Origin: Shigella phage vB_SsoM_113
Strand: one strand, 5' to 3'
Length of the DNA stretch: 64,000 bases
Sequence record: LR746311
The notes under the pieces are model-generated. The model saw nothing but the letters and a program-made list of their open reading frames with translations, was not told where the DNA came from and did no database searches. Below are positions 7,888-53,953 of the stretch, piece after piece (within the stretch, counting starts at the first letter, position 1; each line of letters begins with the position of its first letter). The translations under genes and the position numbers were made by a program.

Positions 7888-7917
7888 GTTTACAAGACTG
7901 TTCCTCTGTGGTACTAT
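7888..7917 (+). promoter_or_regulatory. early promoter (PeS-like, copy D)
   Basis: gtttac 7888-7893 ... ctgtggtactatacaactatcaact, sharing its 3' half with copy A. Confidence 0.55.
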
Positions 7918-7945
7918 ACAACTATCAACTACGGAGGAACAGAAA

Positions 7946-8059
7946 ATGAAAAAGATTGTTAAAGCTATATGGAATGTAGTTATAATACTAGTAGTTTTGA
8001 GTATATTCCCAATCGTTTTAATGATTGATGTATTAAACGCTTACTTTGGATTTATGTGA
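7946..8059 (+). CDS. small membrane peptide (37 aa)
   Basis: GGAGGA RBS then MKKIVKAIWNVVIILVVLSIFPIVLMIDVLNAYFGFM. Confidence 0.35.
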   Translation: MKKIVKAIWNVVIILVVLSIFPIVLMIDVLNAYFGFM

Positions 8060-29560: not shown

Positions 29561-29590
29561 GTTTACAACAGGCTATAGTAGTGATACTAT
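29561..29590 (+). promoter_or_regulatory. early promoter with palindromic spacer
   Basis: gtttac 29561-29566; ggctatagta...tactatagcc inverted repeat spans the -10. Confidence 0.5.
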
Positions 29591-29615
29591 AGCCTTATTA
29601 ACTAAGGAGAATAAA

Positions 29616-30228: not shown

Positions 30229-31256
<1,028 letters not shown>

Positions 31257-31257
<1 letters not shown>

Positions 31258-32117
31258 TGAAACAATACCAATTTTTAATTAAAGATATCCTGGAAAATGG
31301 CTATGAAACCGATGACCGAACAGGCACAGGAACAATTGCTCTGTTCGGTACTAAATTACGCTGGGATTTAACTAAAGGTTTTCCTGCAGTAACGACTAAG
31401 AAGCTCGCCTGGAAAGCTTGCATTGCTGAACTAATATGGTTTTTATCGGGAAGCACAAATGTCAATGATTTGCGATTAATTCAACATGATTCATTAATTC
31501 AAGGCAAAACCGTTTGGGATGAAAATTACGAAAATCAAGCAAAAGATTTAGGATACCATAGCGGTGAACTTGGTCCAATTTATGGAAAACAATGGCGCGA
31601 TTTTGGCGGTGTAGACCAAATTATAGAAGTTGTTGATCGTATTAAAAAACTGCCAAATGATAGACGTCAAATTGTTTCTGCATGGAATCCAGCTGAACTT
31701 AAATATATGTCATTACCACCTTGTCATATGTTTTATCAATTTAATGCGCGTAATGGCTATTTGGATTTGCAGTGGTATCAACGTTCAGTAGATGTTTTCC
31801 TCGGTCTTCCATTTAATATTGCGTCATATGCTGCGTTAGTTCATATTGTAGCTAAGATGTGTAATCTTATTCCGGGAGATTTGATATTTTCTGGCGGTAA
31901 TACTCATATCTATATGAATCACGTAGAACAATGTAAAGAAATTTTGCGTCGTGAACCTAAAGAGCTTTGTGAACTGGTAATAGGCGGATTGCCTTATAAA
32001 TTCCGATATCTTTCTACTAAAGAACAATTGGAATATGTTCTTAAACTTAGGCCTAAAGATTTCGTTCTTAAAGGTTACGAATCTCACCCGCCAATTAAAG
32101 GAAAAATGGCGGTATAA
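31257..32117 (+). CDS. td: thymidylate synthase (intronless)
   Basis: 286 aa from ATG 31257 (MKQYQFLIKDILENGYETDDRTGTGT...), collinear with spliced T4 Td; no intron. Confidence 0.95.
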
Positions 32118-34985: not shown

Positions 34986-36164
34986 ATGAGCACAGTTTTT
35001 AATACAAATCCAGTTGATGTTTTAAAAGAACCTATGTTCTTCGGTTCAGGTCTTGGTATTGCGCGTTATGATATTCAACGCCATAAAGTTTTTGAAGATT
35101 TAACCGAAAAGCAATTGTCATTTTTCTGGCGTCCTGAAGAAGTAAACTTGATGATGGATGCTGCACAATTTAACAAGCTTCCCCAGTATCAGCAAGATAT
35201 TTTTACTAATAACCTGAAGTATCAATCACTTTTGGATAGCATTCAGGGTCGTGCACCGTCTGCTGTACTTATGTCGTTAATTTCAGACCCAAGTCTTGAT
35301 ACATGGGTTGCTACATGGACTTTTAGTGAAACTATTCACAGCCGTTCATATACTCATATCATGCGAAATCTTTATACTGATCCGTCAAAGGTATTTGATG
35401 AGATTGTATTAGATAAAGCTATTATGAAACGTGCTGAATCTATTGGTCGTTATTATGATGATGTTATTGAGAAAACTCGTGAATGGGAAAACGCAAAAGA
35501 AATTTTTAGGTGTTTTTCAGAGAATGAATATGATTTGGACGCATATTCAAATAGCCTTATGCATGTAGAAGAATGCAAATACGAACTAATGCGTTCTCTT
35601 TACCTTTGTCTGCATGTAATCAACGCATTGGAAGCTATTCGTTTTTATGTATCTTTCGCATGTACCTTTAACTTCCATAAGAACATGGAAATCATGGAAG
35701 GTAATGCCAAGATTATGAAGTTCATTGCACGTGATGAGCAGCTTCACCTTAAAGGCACCCAATATATTATTCGTCAACTTCAACTTGGCACTGATGGTGA
35801 TGAATGGGTTAAAATCGCCCAAGAGTGTGAACAAGAAGCAGTTGATATTTTCATGGAAGTTAACCGTCAAGAAAAAGACTGGGCAGTTCATTTATTTAAA
35901 GATGGTGATGTTCCTGGATTAAATACAAATAGCATGTGGAGCTTTATTGATTACTTAACCGTATCTCGTATGAAACAGTGCGGTCTTCCATGCCCAATTA
36001 CCGATGCTCCGGTTAAACATCCGTATCCTTGGATTCGTGAATATCTTAATTCTGATAATGTTCAATCCGCGCCACAAGAAGTAGAACTGTCATCTTACCT
36101 TGTAGCACAGATTGATAATGATGTTGATGATAAAGTTATGATGAGTTTTAAAAAATATTTTTAA
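34986..36164 (+). CDS. nrdB: ribonucleotide reductase small subunit (intronless)
   Basis: 392 aa continuous ORF with di-iron/tyrosyl-radical type motifs; no intron. Confidence 0.9.
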   Translation: MSTVFNTNPVDVLKEPMFFGSGLGIARYDIQRHKVFEDLTEKQLSFFWRPEEVNLMMDAAQFNKLPQYQQDIFTNNLKYQSLLDSIQGRAPSAVLMSLISDPSLDTWVATWTFSETIHSRSYTHIMRNLYTDPSKVFDEIVLDKAIMKRAESIGRYYDDVIEKTREWENAKEIFRCFSENEYDLDAYSNSLMHVEECKYELMRSLYLCLHVINALEAIRFYVSFACTFNFHKNMEIMEGNAKIMKFIARDEQLHLKGTQYIIRQLQLGTDGDEWVKIAQECEQEAVDIFMEVNRQEKDWAVHLFKDGDVPGLNTNSMWSFIDYLTVSRMKQCGLPCPITDAPVKHPYPWIREYLNSDNVQSAPQEVELSSYLVAQIDNDVDDKVMMSFKKYF

Positions 36165-36191: not shown

Positions 36192-37779
<1,588 letters not shown>

Positions 37780-37782
37780 GCT

Positions 37783-37840
37783 GTTTACAAGTCCCTCGTG
37801 TTGTGTTACAGTAGTTTTACTGACATAACATGAGGACTTT
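37783..37840 (+). promoter_or_regulatory. promoter plus 5' leader hairpin covering the RBS (repeat copy 1)
   Basis: gtttac 37783-37788; arms ctcgtgttgtgtta / tgacataacatgag can pair (G-U tolerant) over the SD-like gagga; repeated at 53574. Confidence 0.45.
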
Positions 37841-37843
37841 ATG

Positions 37844-38347
37844 ATGGATTTGCAGCTTATTACTACTGAGATGGTCGTTGAAGCATACGGTGATACTACA
37901 GATGGGATTTCTGTATTTAAAGGAAATCGTCGAGTTGGATATATCACCGATCTTAAGAAAGATTTAGCTAAGCAAGTCAAGCGGAAAACGACCATTAAAG
38001 AATATCGAAATCGTCGTCTTGAGCAAGCCCGTGATATGCTTCCTGATGCAGTTGAGGAGATGAAAGTCTTTTTAGAAAATCAGCTTGCAAAATATGATTG
38101 TGATGTGTTCATTAATCAGACTCAACCTAATGTTCATATCAATAACTGTAAATGCTATATCATCGTTAATCCTTTGACTGGAAAACATCGTCTTGGAATT
38201 AGTAATCCAAATCGTAGCGCATCGGATATGGCAGAAGATGTTGAGGCATGCTTTAAAATTTCTAAATCTCCTGCTGAACATCATATTTTAATTAACGGTC
38301 TTTCTCAAGACGATATTATAGAGGTTATTAAAACTTTATGCAATTAA
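37844..38347 (+). CDS. alc: Alc (blocks transcription of cytosine-containing DNA)
   Basis: 167 aa from the second ATG, conserved position after rnlA. Confidence 0.7.
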   Translation: MDLQLITTEMVVEAYGDTTDGISVFKGNRRVGYITDLKKDLAKQVKRKTTIKEYRNRRLEQARDMLPDAVEEMKVFLENQLAKYDCDVFINQTQPNVHINNCKCYIIVNPLTGKHRLGISNPNRSASDMAEDVEACFKISKSPAEHHILINGLSQDDIIEVIKTLCN

Positions 38348-41107: not shown

Positions 41108-41137
41108 GTTTACTTTATGGTAGAGTTGTGATATTAT
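41108..41137 (+). promoter_or_regulatory. early promoter
   Basis: gtttac 41108-41113, 18-bp spacer, tattat. Confidence 0.5.
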
Positions 41138-41167
41138 AGCTATACCAAAACAAATGAGGAAATTGAA

Positions 41168-44797: not shown

Positions 44798-44830
44798 GTT
44801 TACAGTATGGTTCCTTTGTGATAGTATTAT
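44798..44830 (+). promoter_or_regulatory. early promoter
   Basis: gtttac 44798-44803, about 18-bp spacer, tagtattat. Confidence 0.5.
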
Positions 44831-44854
44831 CTTACACAAACAAAGGAGAATAAA

Positions 44855-45187
44855 ATGAAAACGATTAATCTGAACGCTGCAGTTAAAACTAAATGCTTCA
44901 ATGGTAAATATGATGAAACTATGTGGTTCTTAATGGCAGTTGAAGGTGATATTATTGAAGTAGAAACAACAGAAGGTATGGGAACAGATTTCACCTTTAC
45001 AATTCAAGTTCATAATTTCTTTACTGGTTGGATTTATGAATTGAATACAGTAATCGTTGGAAAAATTGAACAAAATGAATTGGGTGAATGGTATTATGTT
45101 ACAGCTCGCCAACGTGCCGAACGCTTAATTGAGAAGATGAAAAAAGTTGGTAAACTTGACATGCAGCACTGGAAAGTAGTAAAATAA
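44855..45187 (+). CDS. hypothetical protein (30.x region)
   Basis: 110 aa, AGGAGA RBS. Confidence 0.5.
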   Translation: MKTINLNAAVKTKCFNGKYDETMWFLMAVEGDIIEVETTEGMGTDFTFTIQVHNFFTGWIYELNTVIVGKIEQNELGEWYYVTARQRAERLIEKMKKVGKLDMQHWKVVK

Positions 45188-45189
45188 TT

Positions 45190-45229
45190 GTTTACTTTGG
45201 TACAGGATATGATATTATATACCTGTACC
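45190..45229 (+). promoter_or_regulatory. early promoter with palindromic spacer
   Basis: gtttac 45190-45195; ggtacagg...cctgtacc inverted repeat embraces the -10 tattat. Confidence 0.5.
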
Positions 45230-45254
45230 GCAATTAAACATCTTGGAGAATAAA

Positions 45255-51516: not shown

Positions 51517-53574
51517 ATGGAACTTATTACAGAATTATTTGACGGCGCTTCGGCGCCGGTTGTTAACTTAAATCCTAAGCATAAAATACCTCAAATTTTT
51601 GCTATTCAAGCCGGTGAAGAAAGCGTGCTTCCTGGATTTAGATTTTGTACATACACCTCTGGTGGTGATACAAATAAAAACGTTAAGCCAGGCGATAAAA
51701 TGATGCATATCGTAATGATAGGTGTCAATGAGAAACTATCATTAGTTAAACTTAAAAACTTGGGTGGAAATCCAATTGGTGTCATTAATGCCGTTTTTGA
51801 TACTGCTCTTCAAACAATGAAACAGTATAAAATTGACGCATGCCTATTCCGCGTACTAAAGAGTAAAACAAATGGCGCAGCTCGTCAAATGCAAGTTATT
51901 GCTGACCGTTTAGTACGTACTAAAGGAGCAGGTCGATATGTTCTTTTAAAAGAAATCTGGGATTATGATAAAAAGTATGCATATATTATGGTTTACCGTA
52001 AAAATGCCAATTTAGAAGACATTCCAGGTGTACCTCCTATTTCAACTGAGTTATTCACAAAAGTTGAATCAAAGGTTGGTGATGTTTATGTAGATGTTAA
52101 AACAGGTAATGCTGTTCCTAAAGCCGTTGCTGTGGCTGCTTCTATTGCTTTAGAAAATGATAAGCGCACGGATCAAGCTGTTATTCAGAAAACTAAAATT
52201 AGCCGTCGATTAGCAGCACAAGCTCAATATTCTACTGTCGATGCTTCACTTCAGGGTGATAGCTTCGCTGCCAAGAAATATCAAGAGTTTGAATCTAAAG
52301 TTCCGGTATATAAAGCAGAAGGACCAATGAACTCTGGTGTTATTCAGATTGGTTCCAACTTCAGCAAAGGAGCTATCGGTGGTATGAGAAGTGCTTCTCG
52401 TTTTAAATCTAACGATTATGAACTAGAAAGCTTCCGAAATCATATTGCATTGGCCCATGCACGTTTACGTGATCCGTCTATCAGACTGCAGAGCGATATA
52501 ACATATCAAGGTTCTCAAGAATATTTAAAGAATAAAGAATTTTTTGATTATAAAACCGATAAAATTTTGAGCGATCTCGCTGACATTAATATTTCTAATA
52601 GCTTTGATGTTATTAAGAAAATTGTCAATGATTTAGTTAAAGGTTCTAAAGCCGCACCAGACGAAAAGGTAGCTATTATTCAATTTGTCATGAATAGCAT
52701 TTATAAATTGATTAATGAATCTGCTGCTCAGGCATATGAATACGCAAGCACCGAAGTAACTCCAAAAGGATTAACTCAGTCTGAGTCTGATGTAATTGAA
52801 GATTATTGTGCAGATTCATATGTTGAAATGAACTCGTTCCTCTTGGGTAAACCAGATTCTACCCGTGAAGAATACATGGAACGAGCTATTAAACACATCG
52901 AGACGCTGGATTCTGCATTCGCCAAAGGATCAGTTCTTCCTCCAGGAACTACGCTTTATCGTGGGCAAGAAGTTACTTTTAAAACTTTACGTCATAATAT
53001 TGAAAATAAAATGTTCTATTTTAAGAACTTCGTATCAACATCGCTTAAACCAAATATCTTCGGTGAGCATGGTAAAAACTATATGGCTCTAGATGATTCA
53101 GGTGCAGTATTTTCTGGTGAAGGAGAAGGTTCTGTTGATGCTGAAGATTTAATGCATATGGGTAGTCATTCTGCATATGCTAATGAAGATGCTGAAGCTA
53201 GCGTAGGTATGGTAATTAAAGGGGCTGAGCGAATCAAAGTTATCGTTCCAGGTCATTTATCAGGATTTCCATCAGAAGCTGAAGTTATTCTACCACGTGG
53301 AATTTTGTTAAAGATTAATAAAGTAAGCACGTACATGATGAAAGAAACTGCTTATAACAAGTATCTAATCGAAGGCACAATCGTTCCTCCTTCTGAACAA
53401 TTAGAAGAATCAGTATATGATGGCGATCATCTAATGGAAACTGGTGAAGTTCGTCCAATGGCTAGGTTTAATCAATTCCTTGTAGAAGAATCAAAAGAAG
53501 AGGAAAACGAAGTTTCTCAAATCTTGGCTTCTTTGGTTAACATCAATGGAATGTCTAAAAAGTTCAAGATGTAG
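51517..53574 (+). CDS. Alt-type ADP-ribosyltransferase, paralog 2
   Basis: 685 aa; same N-terminus MELITELFDG and C-terminal ART motifs (LYRGQE, FVSTSL, SEAEVILPRG); divergent central region. Confidence 0.75.
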   Translation: MELITELFDGASAPVVNLNPKHKIPQIFAIQAGEESVLPGFRFCTYTSGGDTNKNVKPGDKMMHIVMIGVNEKLSLVKLKNLGGNPIGVINAVFDTALQTMKQYKIDACLFRVLKSKTNGAARQMQVIADRLVRTKGAGRYVLLKEIWDYDKKYAYIMVYRKNANLEDIPGVPPISTELFTKVESKVGDVYVDVKTGNAVPKAVAVAASIALENDKRTDQAVIQKTKISRRLAAQAQYSTVDASLQGDSFAAKKYQEFESKVPVYKAEGPMNSGVIQIGSNFSKGAIGGMRSASRFKSNDYELESFRNHIALAHARLRDPSIRLQSDITYQGSQEYLKNKEFFDYKTDKILSDLADINISNSFDVIKKIVNDLVKGSKAAPDEKVAIIQFVMNSIYKLINESAAQAYEYASTEVTPKGLTQSESDVIEDYCADSYVEMNSFLLGKPDSTREEYMERAIKHIETLDSAFAKGSVLPPGTTLYRGQEVTFKTLRHNIENKMFYFKNFVSTSLKPNIFGEHGKNYMALDDSGAVFSGEGEGSVDAEDLMHMGSHSAYANEDAEASVGMVIKGAERIKVIVPGHLSGFPSEAEVILPRGILLKINKVSTYMMKETAYNKYLIEGTIVPPSEQLEESVYDGDHLMETGEVRPMARFNQFLVEESKEEENEVSQILASLVNINGMSKKFKM

Positions 53575-53632
53575 TTTACAAGTCCATCGTGTTGTGTTAT
53601 AATAATCTTACTGACATAACATGAGGAACACA
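53574..53632 (+). promoter_or_regulatory. promoter plus 5' leader hairpin covering the RBS (repeat copy 2)
   Basis: gtttac 53574-53579 overlapping the alt-2 stop; tataat 53598-53603; same stem arms as the element at 37783 with a different loop. Confidence 0.45.
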
Positions 53633-53634
53633 AA

Positions 53635-53925
53635 ATGAAATCTTCTTTACGCTTTTTAGGTCAAGAACTTATAGTTGAAGGCGTTATTCCTGCTGATAAT
53701 GCTTTTAATGAAGCAGTTTATGATGAATTTATCAAAATTTTTGGAATAGATAAAAAGTTCGGAATTTTTCCTTCTGAAAATTTTTCAAAGCCAGAGCAGA
53801 CTGAAAGCATTTTCCAAGGTGTAGTAACAGGTAAATTCGAGTCAGAAGCTCCGGTAAAAATTGAAGTTTATATTGAAGACAGTTTAGTTGCTTCAGTTGC
53901 TGCTTTTATTTCATTCCGTAAATAA
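53635..53925 (+). CDS. hypothetical protein (alt.-1 position)
   Basis: 96-aa ORF after the repeated leader element. Confidence 0.5.
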   Translation: MKSSLRFLGQELIVEGVIPADNAFNEAVYDEFIKIFGIDKKFGIFPSENFSKPEQTESIFQGVVTGKFESEAPVKIEVYIEDSLVASVAAFISFRK

Positions 53926-53931
53926 AAATAT

Positions 53932-53949
53932 GGGGACCAAAAGGTCCCC
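53932..53949. terminator. bidirectional terminator between convergent units
   Basis: ggggacc-aaaa-ggtcccc perfect hairpin between the + ORF ending 53925 and - strand gene 54 ending 53954. Confidence 0.55.
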
Positions 53950-53953
53950 ATTG

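Follow-up and report, generated by a model that had tools for sequence, protein, structure and literature searches.

In phage T4, a textbook case of temporal gene control, some genes are masked by RNA secondary structure. For e, soc, 49 and I-TevI the Shine-Dalgarno (SD) sequence or the AUG is sequestered in long transcripts. A promoter is so placed that its transcript lacks the 5' strand of the structure and is translatable, and related phages keep these structures (PMC3014915, section 29). The same section also places I-TevII, I-TevIII, Aeh1 mobE and T4 segB in this class. The genes alc, alt.-3 and ndd.4 are not among the masked genes listed in that 2010 review (PMC3014915). A second described system is the PeSL, a repeated cassette of early promoter, stem-loop and SD found in RB49 and phi1 (Arbiol et al., PMC2839356) and extended to the T4/PST pair (Comeau et al., PMC4122927). 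The RB49 stem-loops often lie in the stretch that separates the -35 from the -10 or over the -10 (PMC2839356). SD pairing is not discussed in the two PeSL papers, and the words "sequester" and "translation" occur 0 times in the text of PMC2839356.

Here we describe an element in which a sigma-70-type T4 early promoter appears to be enclosed by the arms of an RNA hairpin pairing with the SD. The element occurs twice in the window, i.e. the whole analysed stretch of 64,000 nucleotides from Shigella phage vB_SsoM_113 (LR746311). Judged by its sequence, the window is Tequatrovirus DNA: the region near 37.8 kb has 98% identity to many Tequatrovirus (T4-like) genomes. The plus strand of the window is the direction of early transcription in T4. 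Copy 1 (37783-37840) lies within the 61-nt gap between alc and rnlA, whose stop codon is at 37777-37779. Copy 2 (53574-53632) lies between alt and alt.-3, and the TAG stop codon of alt overlaps the G of its GTTTAC, see Table 1. The alc frame begins with ATGATG, and the start annotated in T4 is the second ATG (37844). The rnlA of T4 is 1125 nt long, which places the true start of rnlA in the window probably near 36655.

On the 3' side of alt.-3 there is a terminator-like hairpin at 53930-53951, followed by the convergent baseplate genes 54 and 48. This is a perfect 9-bp G+C-rich hairpin between alt.-3 and 54, flagged on both strands, with a U-rich tail only on the minus-strand copy. From gene order and the size of their ORFs, td (31245-32117) and nrdB (34986-36164) both appear uninterrupted, and the window thus seems to lack the group I introns of T4 with I-TevI and I-TevIII.

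Table 1. Features of the two copies, their neighbouring genes and two further instances of the same design, in window coordinates.
Feature	Position	Strand	Basis
rnlA (RNA ligase 1), gene upstream of copy 1	36619..37779	+	ORF; rnlA annotation in relatives
Copy 1, -35 region G+TTTACA, T4-type early promoter	37783..37789	+	promoter motif
Copy 1, 5' arm (AAGUCC, bulged C37795, UCGUGUUGUGU, then CAGUA)	37789..37813	+	fold
Copy 1, extended -10 TGT TACAGT	37804..37812	+	promoter motif
Copy 1, 3' arm including Shine-Dalgarno GAGGA (37832-37836)	37818..37839	+	fold
Copy 1, predicted transcription start (A), 7 nt past the -10 hexamer	37819	+	T4 early promoter geometry
alc (inhibitor of host transcription)	37841..38347	+	ORF; annotation in T4 and relatives
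alt (ADP-ribosyltransferase), gene upstream of copy 2	51517..53574	+	ORF
Copy 2, early promoter (G+TTTACA 53574-53580, TGT TATAAT 53595-53603)	53574..53603	+	promoter motif
Copy 2, 5' arm, inside the promoter	53583..53602	+	fold
Copy 2, 3' arm including Shine-Dalgarno GAGGA (53623-53627)	53608..53627	+	fold
Copy 2, predicted transcription start (A)	53610	+	T4 early promoter geometry
alt.-3 (96 aa, conserved hypothetical protein)	53635..53925	+	ORF = T4 alt.-3
Same design, unrelated sequence; homologue of the T4 ndd.4 promoter, upstream of a 37-aa ORF	7889..7948	+	fold
Weaker instance upstream of gene 30.8	44799..44857	+	fold -12.1 kcal/mol, duplex -11.3 kcal/mol

The original prediction spoke of a repeated promoter with a leader hairpin. 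The promoter is there in both copies, TTTACA-17-TACAGT at alc and TTTACA-17-TATAAT at alt.-3, each with a TGn motif, and both have the form of a T4 early promoter. At the alc site the -10 of T4 is TATAGT, and the homologous site in phage fPS-65 is annotated as "predicted early promoter". The repetition also holds. Each of the shared blocks occurs exactly twice in the window, where 0 occurrences are expected by chance, and the tracts 37783-37836 and 53574-53627 form a gapless alignment of 54 nt, from GTTTAC to GAGGA, with five mismatches. The first of these, C37795/A53586, is the first base of the 5' arm as it was originally drawn, and the other four (37809, 37811, 37814 and 37816) fall in the 10-nt loop. 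By sequence, no further copy was found in the window.

Both copies are predicted to be more stable than shuffled sequence. Copy 1 folds at -25.7 kcal/mol (z = -6.3, 0/200 shuffles as good) and copy 2 at -17.8 kcal/mol (z = -2.7), with a 42-nt core of -13.8 kcal/mol (z = -4.2). GAGGA is fully paired in both predicted folds, i.e. the hairpin covers the SD as suggested. The proposed stem is present, but its length of about 14 bp was underestimated for copy 1, which reaches about 22 bp through added pairs at the base (AAGUCC/GGACUU) and at the top (CAGUA/UACUG).

The term leader hairpin is, on the other hand, a misnomer for an RNA made by the promoter itself. In T4 early promoters the -10 is located at -12..-7 (PMC9161530), so the start, whose exact site we infer from this geometry, should be an A between the arms in both copies, see Table 1. 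The predicted +1 lies about 2 nt ahead of the 3' arm (the 3' arms begin at 37818-37821 and 53608-53612), and the 5' arm consists of the 17-nt promoter spacer plus the -10, spanning -30 to -6. As the 5' arm is upstream of +1, the mRNA of the promoter itself lacks it and is predicted to be open. The hairpin is thus predicted to form only in read-through RNA coming from rnlA or alt. Folding agrees with this picture. RNA beginning near the predicted +1 has no significant structure (z = +1.5 for alc and +0.5 for alt.-3), and the cost of opening the region from the SD to AUG+5 is 4.3 kcal/mol in the own-promoter transcript of alc versus 14.8 kcal/mol in read-through RNA. For alt.-3 the corresponding costs are 4.2 and 10.2-11.8 kcal/mol.

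This geometry bears directly on the idea of a hairpin that acts in the leader of the promoter's own mRNA, with temperature or an RNA-binding factor opening it. In favour of that idea, the SD is indeed covered, and the loop varies both between the copies and among Tequatroviruses. However, the 5' arm at -30 to -6 is absent from that mRNA, and the proposed coupling of translation to a factor or to temperature is not supported. A factor would also need something to recognise, and among the compared clades there is no conserved sequence or loop motif; an Rfam search gave no family at gathering score, its sole match being a chance miRNA precursor with 16 bits against a threshold of 135 bits. An RNA thermometer, i.e. 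a weak and mismatched SD hairpin in the gene's own 5' UTR, was considered and rejected, given the 5' arm upstream of the predicted +1 and alc stems of -14 to -26 kcal/mol across the masked clades. Known RNA thermometers look different from stems that are this stable and perfectly paired over long stretches. We regard the own-leader model as almost certainly wrong.

Selection on the structure had been proposed from the stem being kept and the loop changed between the two copies. The conclusion stands, but on other grounds. The alc and alt.-3 copies of T4 are 1 nt apart, and one IMG/VR genome has two identical copies. Because the copies are identical or one base apart in T4 and other relatives, comparing the two is weak evidence for selection, and a covariation test on the two window copies was dropped for this reason. 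Tequatrovirus variants that touch the stem change G.U to A-U or U.G to U-A (loci L008 and L017, and the T4 alt.-3 copy).

The evidence comes instead from other genera. The rnlA-alc intergenic set consists of 12 loci from annotated phages and 38 IMG/VR loci (Alc protein alignment), and the gap is 57-65 nt almost everywhere in the compared Straboviridae loci. A masked architecture is found at alc in Tequatro-, Dhaka-, Karam-, Moon-, Gelderland-, Jiaoda-, Braga- and Winklervirus as well as in further IMG/VR clades. At least nine Straboviridae clades have the same architecture upstream of alc, with differing, co-varying arms. In the masked clades the anti-SD arm begins 0-2 nt past TTTACA, with the -10 and +1 in the loop and the SD at the end of the 3' arm. 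The arms change together (TCTCC/GGAGA, TCCTC/GAGGA, CCTCTC/GAGAGG, CCCC/GGGG and CCTCG/CGAGG), and within the stems the changes across clades are of the type A-U to G-C and similar.

When all 23 masked sequences were aligned with MAFFT, the pairing register differed between clades. For this reason pairs were formally counted in just the 12 sequences that share a register, in a sequence-based MAFFT alignment, and an alignment-free test was added. In the 12-sequence alignment 90.8% of the cells are paired compared with 82.7% in shuffles (0/500), double-sided changes are seen at 5 of 13 pairs, and the covariation score is 0.288 versus 0.144 (0/500); slid controls have at most 54.6% of the cells paired. 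RNAalifold independently predicts the same helix. In the alignment-free test, using ten clade representatives, the cognate spacer-leader duplex has a mean of -19.7 kcal/mol and the non-cognate one -9.9 kcal/mol, and none of 20000 permutations gave a mean as low as the observed one. The cognate duplex ranks first in its column in 10/10 cases and in its row in 9/10. Taking these compensatory changes across genera as the basis, the alc structure is, as far as sequence comparison can tell, under selection.

The device is dispensable, as some lineages lack masking of the alc SD: it is missing in Mosigvirus and in the IMG/VR loci L071-L073, and in PSTCR6 and L060 the alc hairpin stops short of the SD. 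Gaprivervirus (VR7 type; L021 88-404, L047, L048 and L074) has an extra 77-aa Alc-like ORF between rnlA and alc. The insert also carries a G-rich terminator-like hairpin, and its ORF has an SD that lies under another hairpin (GGUUCCAUCA/UGAUGAGGACC).

The same comparison weighs on a DNA-level or neutral explanation, in which the inverted repeat acts on the promoter or on DNA structure, or is a by-product of gene conversion and of the consensus sequences of promoter and SD, with no role in RNA. Outside Tequatrovirus the stems are almost all Watson-Crick, and sense and antisense RNA, or DNA, fold equally well. The end of the spacer (TGn) and the start region are moreover constrained by the promoter; the innermost stem, GTG/CAC, overlaps both, and its conservation may thus be due in part to the promoter. 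Yet the arms differ in sequence between clades and stay complementary, most early promoters have no such complementarity, and in Tequatrovirus the stems fold at -24 kcal/mol in sense and -15 kcal/mol in antisense RNA, with G.U pairs favouring the sense RNA by 5-9 kcal/mol. We give this explanation very little weight.

According to the PeSL reading, the stem-loop would be a terminator, an attenuator or a 3'-end stabiliser of upstream transcripts, coupled to a fresh promoter. It would insulate transcription units and provide homology for the shuffling of cassettes, and the pairing with the SD would be incidental. Such cassettes are on record in RB49, phi1 and the T4/PST pair, and here too there is homogenisation of the copies in a genome, while copy 2 borders on the alt.-1/alt.-2 indel. 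However, the tails that follow the two stems in the window, CUUUAUGAUG and ACACAAAAUG, have no U run, and a terminator scan of the window flagged neither copy. The U-tract is missing after the stem in every clade (tails CUUUAUG, AAAACGAA, UUAACA, UAUUGAA and similar), and on these grounds an intrinsic terminator was rejected. What is conserved across clades is the pairing of SD and anti-SD and its fixed position after the -35, and a terminator or stabiliser needs neither. The PeSL reading is in our judgement unlikely for these stems.

Translational coupling would also use a hairpin that covers the SD. The ribosome finishing rnlA would melt the 5' arm and so open an alc ribosome site that is otherwise closed on polycistronic RNA, and the output of Alc would be a low, fixed proportion of that of RnlA. 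Coupling through hairpins is well established for polycistronic mRNAs of phages and bacteria, which counts in favour of this explanation. The upstream gene of several clades shares bases of its stop codon with the -35 (TAGTTTACA), only some 6 nt ahead of the 5' arm. In the window, however, 10 nt separate the rnlA stop from the base of the stem and 16 nt from its core, and given the size of the ribosome footprint a terminating ribosome should open at most the first pair. The distance from stop to arm also varies (6-16 nt), whereas the distance from the -35 to the arm is conserved. Coupling to rnlA is for us quite improbable.

Two nucleases were also considered. An RNase III site was set aside, as most clade stems have just 13-17 bp, which is short for RNase III. 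Secondary structure protects GGAG from RegB (PMC3014915). Protection from RegB was rejected as a general explanation, since the SD of Tequatrovirus (GAGGA) does not contain GGAG; it could add to the effect in those clades that have GGAG as SD.

The reading that we favour, and consider somewhat more probable than its negation, is that an early promoter located between the arms of the hairpin masks the SD on read-through RNA and frees it on its own transcript. The promoter motifs, the predicted hairpins, the compensatory conservation and the missing terminator tail were computed, and from these we infer the existence and amount of read-through RNA and its effect on translation. A polymerase arriving via rnlA (for alc) or alt (for alt.-3) would transcribe both arms, and the long RNA would fold and hide the ribosome-binding site. 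From such RNA, initiated at upstream early, middle or late promoters, alc and alt.-3 would be translated poorly or not at all. RNA from the embedded promoter would lack the 5' arm, have an open leader of 22-25 nt and be translated, i.e. the promoter of origin would decide whether the ribosome site is open. Synthesis of Alc would in this way be tied to its own immediate-early promoter, and would end at early-promoter shut-off despite continuing transcription through the gene. Alc is an immediate-early product (PMC2988021). Between 29.6 kb and alc, the window contains no terminator-like sites beyond chance, and PI-TevIII, PnrdB and PnrdA are the closest middle promoters of T4 on the upstream side (Table 1 of PMC2988021), which makes read-through plausible.

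The stop of alc (38338-38347) overlaps the start of pseT.3, an i-spanin-like gene, and pseT.3 overlaps pseT.2. Because of these overlaps, a masked alc ribosome site could also cut coupled downstream translation on read-through RNA.

The masking hairpin is found at some other early promoters, but it is not general to them. The spacer is complementary to its own leader in four of the 12 early promoters of the window. In the ordinary ones, among them another eight of the window and alt.-3 promoters from six other genera, the spacer-leader duplex is -1.7 to -8.3 kcal/mol, compared with -17 to -24 kcal/mol in the masked ones, and it is from this gap that the hairpin is seen to be confined. Besides the two copies there is the ndd.4 promoter homologue (Table 1), in which the spacer arm 7898-7912 pairs with 7928-7942 (SD GGAGGA). 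This element folds at -23.2 kcal/mol (z = -6.8), with a spacer-leader duplex of -23.8 kcal/mol, and the three stem differences between the window and the T4 ndd.4 promoter (at ~166807 in T4) are all compatible with pairing. In the gene 30.8 instance, UUCCUUUGU (44811-44819) pairs with ACAAAGGAG (44840-44848, AAAGGAG). The ndd.4 and 30.8 instances suggest a gate common to a subset of early genes. The corresponding general statement, that T4-like phages maintain such a gate in evolution and that Alc, Ndd.4, gp30.8 and the Alt.-3 of Tequatrovirus would be translatable only from their own promoter-proximal transcripts, is tentative, and our confidence in it is less than even.

Two other types of structure were seen at early promoters. 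In many early promoters across genera the spacer contains the whole of a small hairpin (CCACAAGGAnTGTGG and variants), which leaves the SD untouched. Its sites include 2670, 7164 and 28572 in the window, the alt.-3 promoters of loci L032-L037 and the Mosigvirus alc promoter (L020 and L026). The early promoters at 29562-29600, 45191-45230 and 41109-41150 of the window have a palindrome centred on the -10 (e.g. GGCTATAGTAGTGATACTATAGCC), resembling the PeSL stem-loops described as "overlapping the -10".

The copy at alt.-3 has a different history from the one at alc. Six other genera were examined (Dhaka-, Karam-, Gelderland-, Mosig-, Gapriver- and Moonvirus), and none has the mask there: their alt.-3 promoter is of the ordinary early kind, its leader (ACATGAGGA) open and its only hairpin a small one in the spacer. 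The masked version of alt.-3 is thus specific to Tequatrovirus. From the alignment, the alt.-3 copy is a duplicate of the alc cassette, running from GTTTAC to GAGGA, and it arose most likely, to judge from the sequences, by recombination or gene conversion between early-promoter cassettes, a process already put forward for PeSLs (PMC2839356, PMC4122927). Since the homology ends at GAGGA, copy 2 has no basal extension and its fold is weaker. It may be a passenger of recombination without a selected function at this site.

In T4 (locus L019 6060-6460) alt.-1/alt.-2 is a partial duplication of the 5' part of alt, located between alt and the alt.-3 promoter. It is absent from the window (53540-53580) and from the IMG/VR locus L016, and the junction is at a shared CTAAAAAGT. 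The T4 alt.-2 reading frame continues into the alt.-3 promoter and ends within the -10.

The abrupt stop in the synthesis of early proteins in T4 is ascribed to the shut-off of early promoters, through a mechanism not fully understood, and to cleavage by RegB (PMC3014915). If the proposed masking is true, silencing of read-through RNA by the hairpin would be a third, purely cis-acting contribution to early shut-off. As a general gate, it would help to explain why production of many early proteins collapses at promoter shut-off despite middle and late transcription through the same genes. The 17-nt spacer would double as an anti-Shine-Dalgarno RNA arm, i.e. a single DNA segment would have two levels of reading. 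For the annotation and engineering of T4-like therapeutic phages, translation would change if a gene were moved but its promoter spacer left behind, or if a strong promoter were put upstream. The repeated 54-nt cassette in turn points to recombination or gene conversion between distant early promoters.

Several parts of the element are already known, namely the T4 early promoters, the broad PeSL cassette and the T4 masking principle. In the openly searchable literature we found neither a description of the alc hairpin nor a mapping of T4 transcription starts specific to it; an older account in the subscription literature is possible. With the early promoters of T4 (Pe) the element shares the GTTTACA -35, the 17-nt spacer, TGn and the TAnnnT -10. 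RNA thermometers and protein-operated leaders likewise have a hairpin that pairs with the SD, but the one described here is located outside the 5' UTR that the regulated promoter itself produces, its stems are long and stable, and it has no recognition motif.

The PeSL is closer. Like it, the element is a repeated intergenic early promoter (TTTACW-N17-TAYWAT in T4/PST) with a stable stem-loop, an SD and a start codon, and its copies appear to exchange sequence; the homogenised copies, the different alt.-3 promoter of six other genera and the alt.-1/alt.-2 indel are indirect evidence of such exchange here. PeSL stem-loops are read as terminators or attenuators, and those of T4/PST are described as "just upstream of the promoter" (PMC4122927). 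Unlike the PeSL as described, the element has the SD as its 3' arm and no U-tract, and it extends from the spacer to the SD, a position nearer to those in RB49.

The closest likeness is to the e, soc, 49 and I-TevI class of T4. As in these genes, the SD is paired, here by prediction, in RNA from upstream promoters, the internal promoter starts between the arms, here by geometry, and the arrangement is conserved in relatives. The promoters differ, as the masked genes of T4 have a late (gp55, TATAAATA) or middle promoter, whereas the one here is an early sigma-70 promoter, GTTTACA-17-TAnnnT. Unlike in that class, the 17-nt spacer of the promoter is itself the 5' arm. The timing would also be reversed: the gate of e, soc, 49 and I-TevI delays expression to the late period, and the alc gate would restrict it to the immediate-early period. 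From this comparison, the element is most likely an early-promoter version of the control known for T4 late genes.
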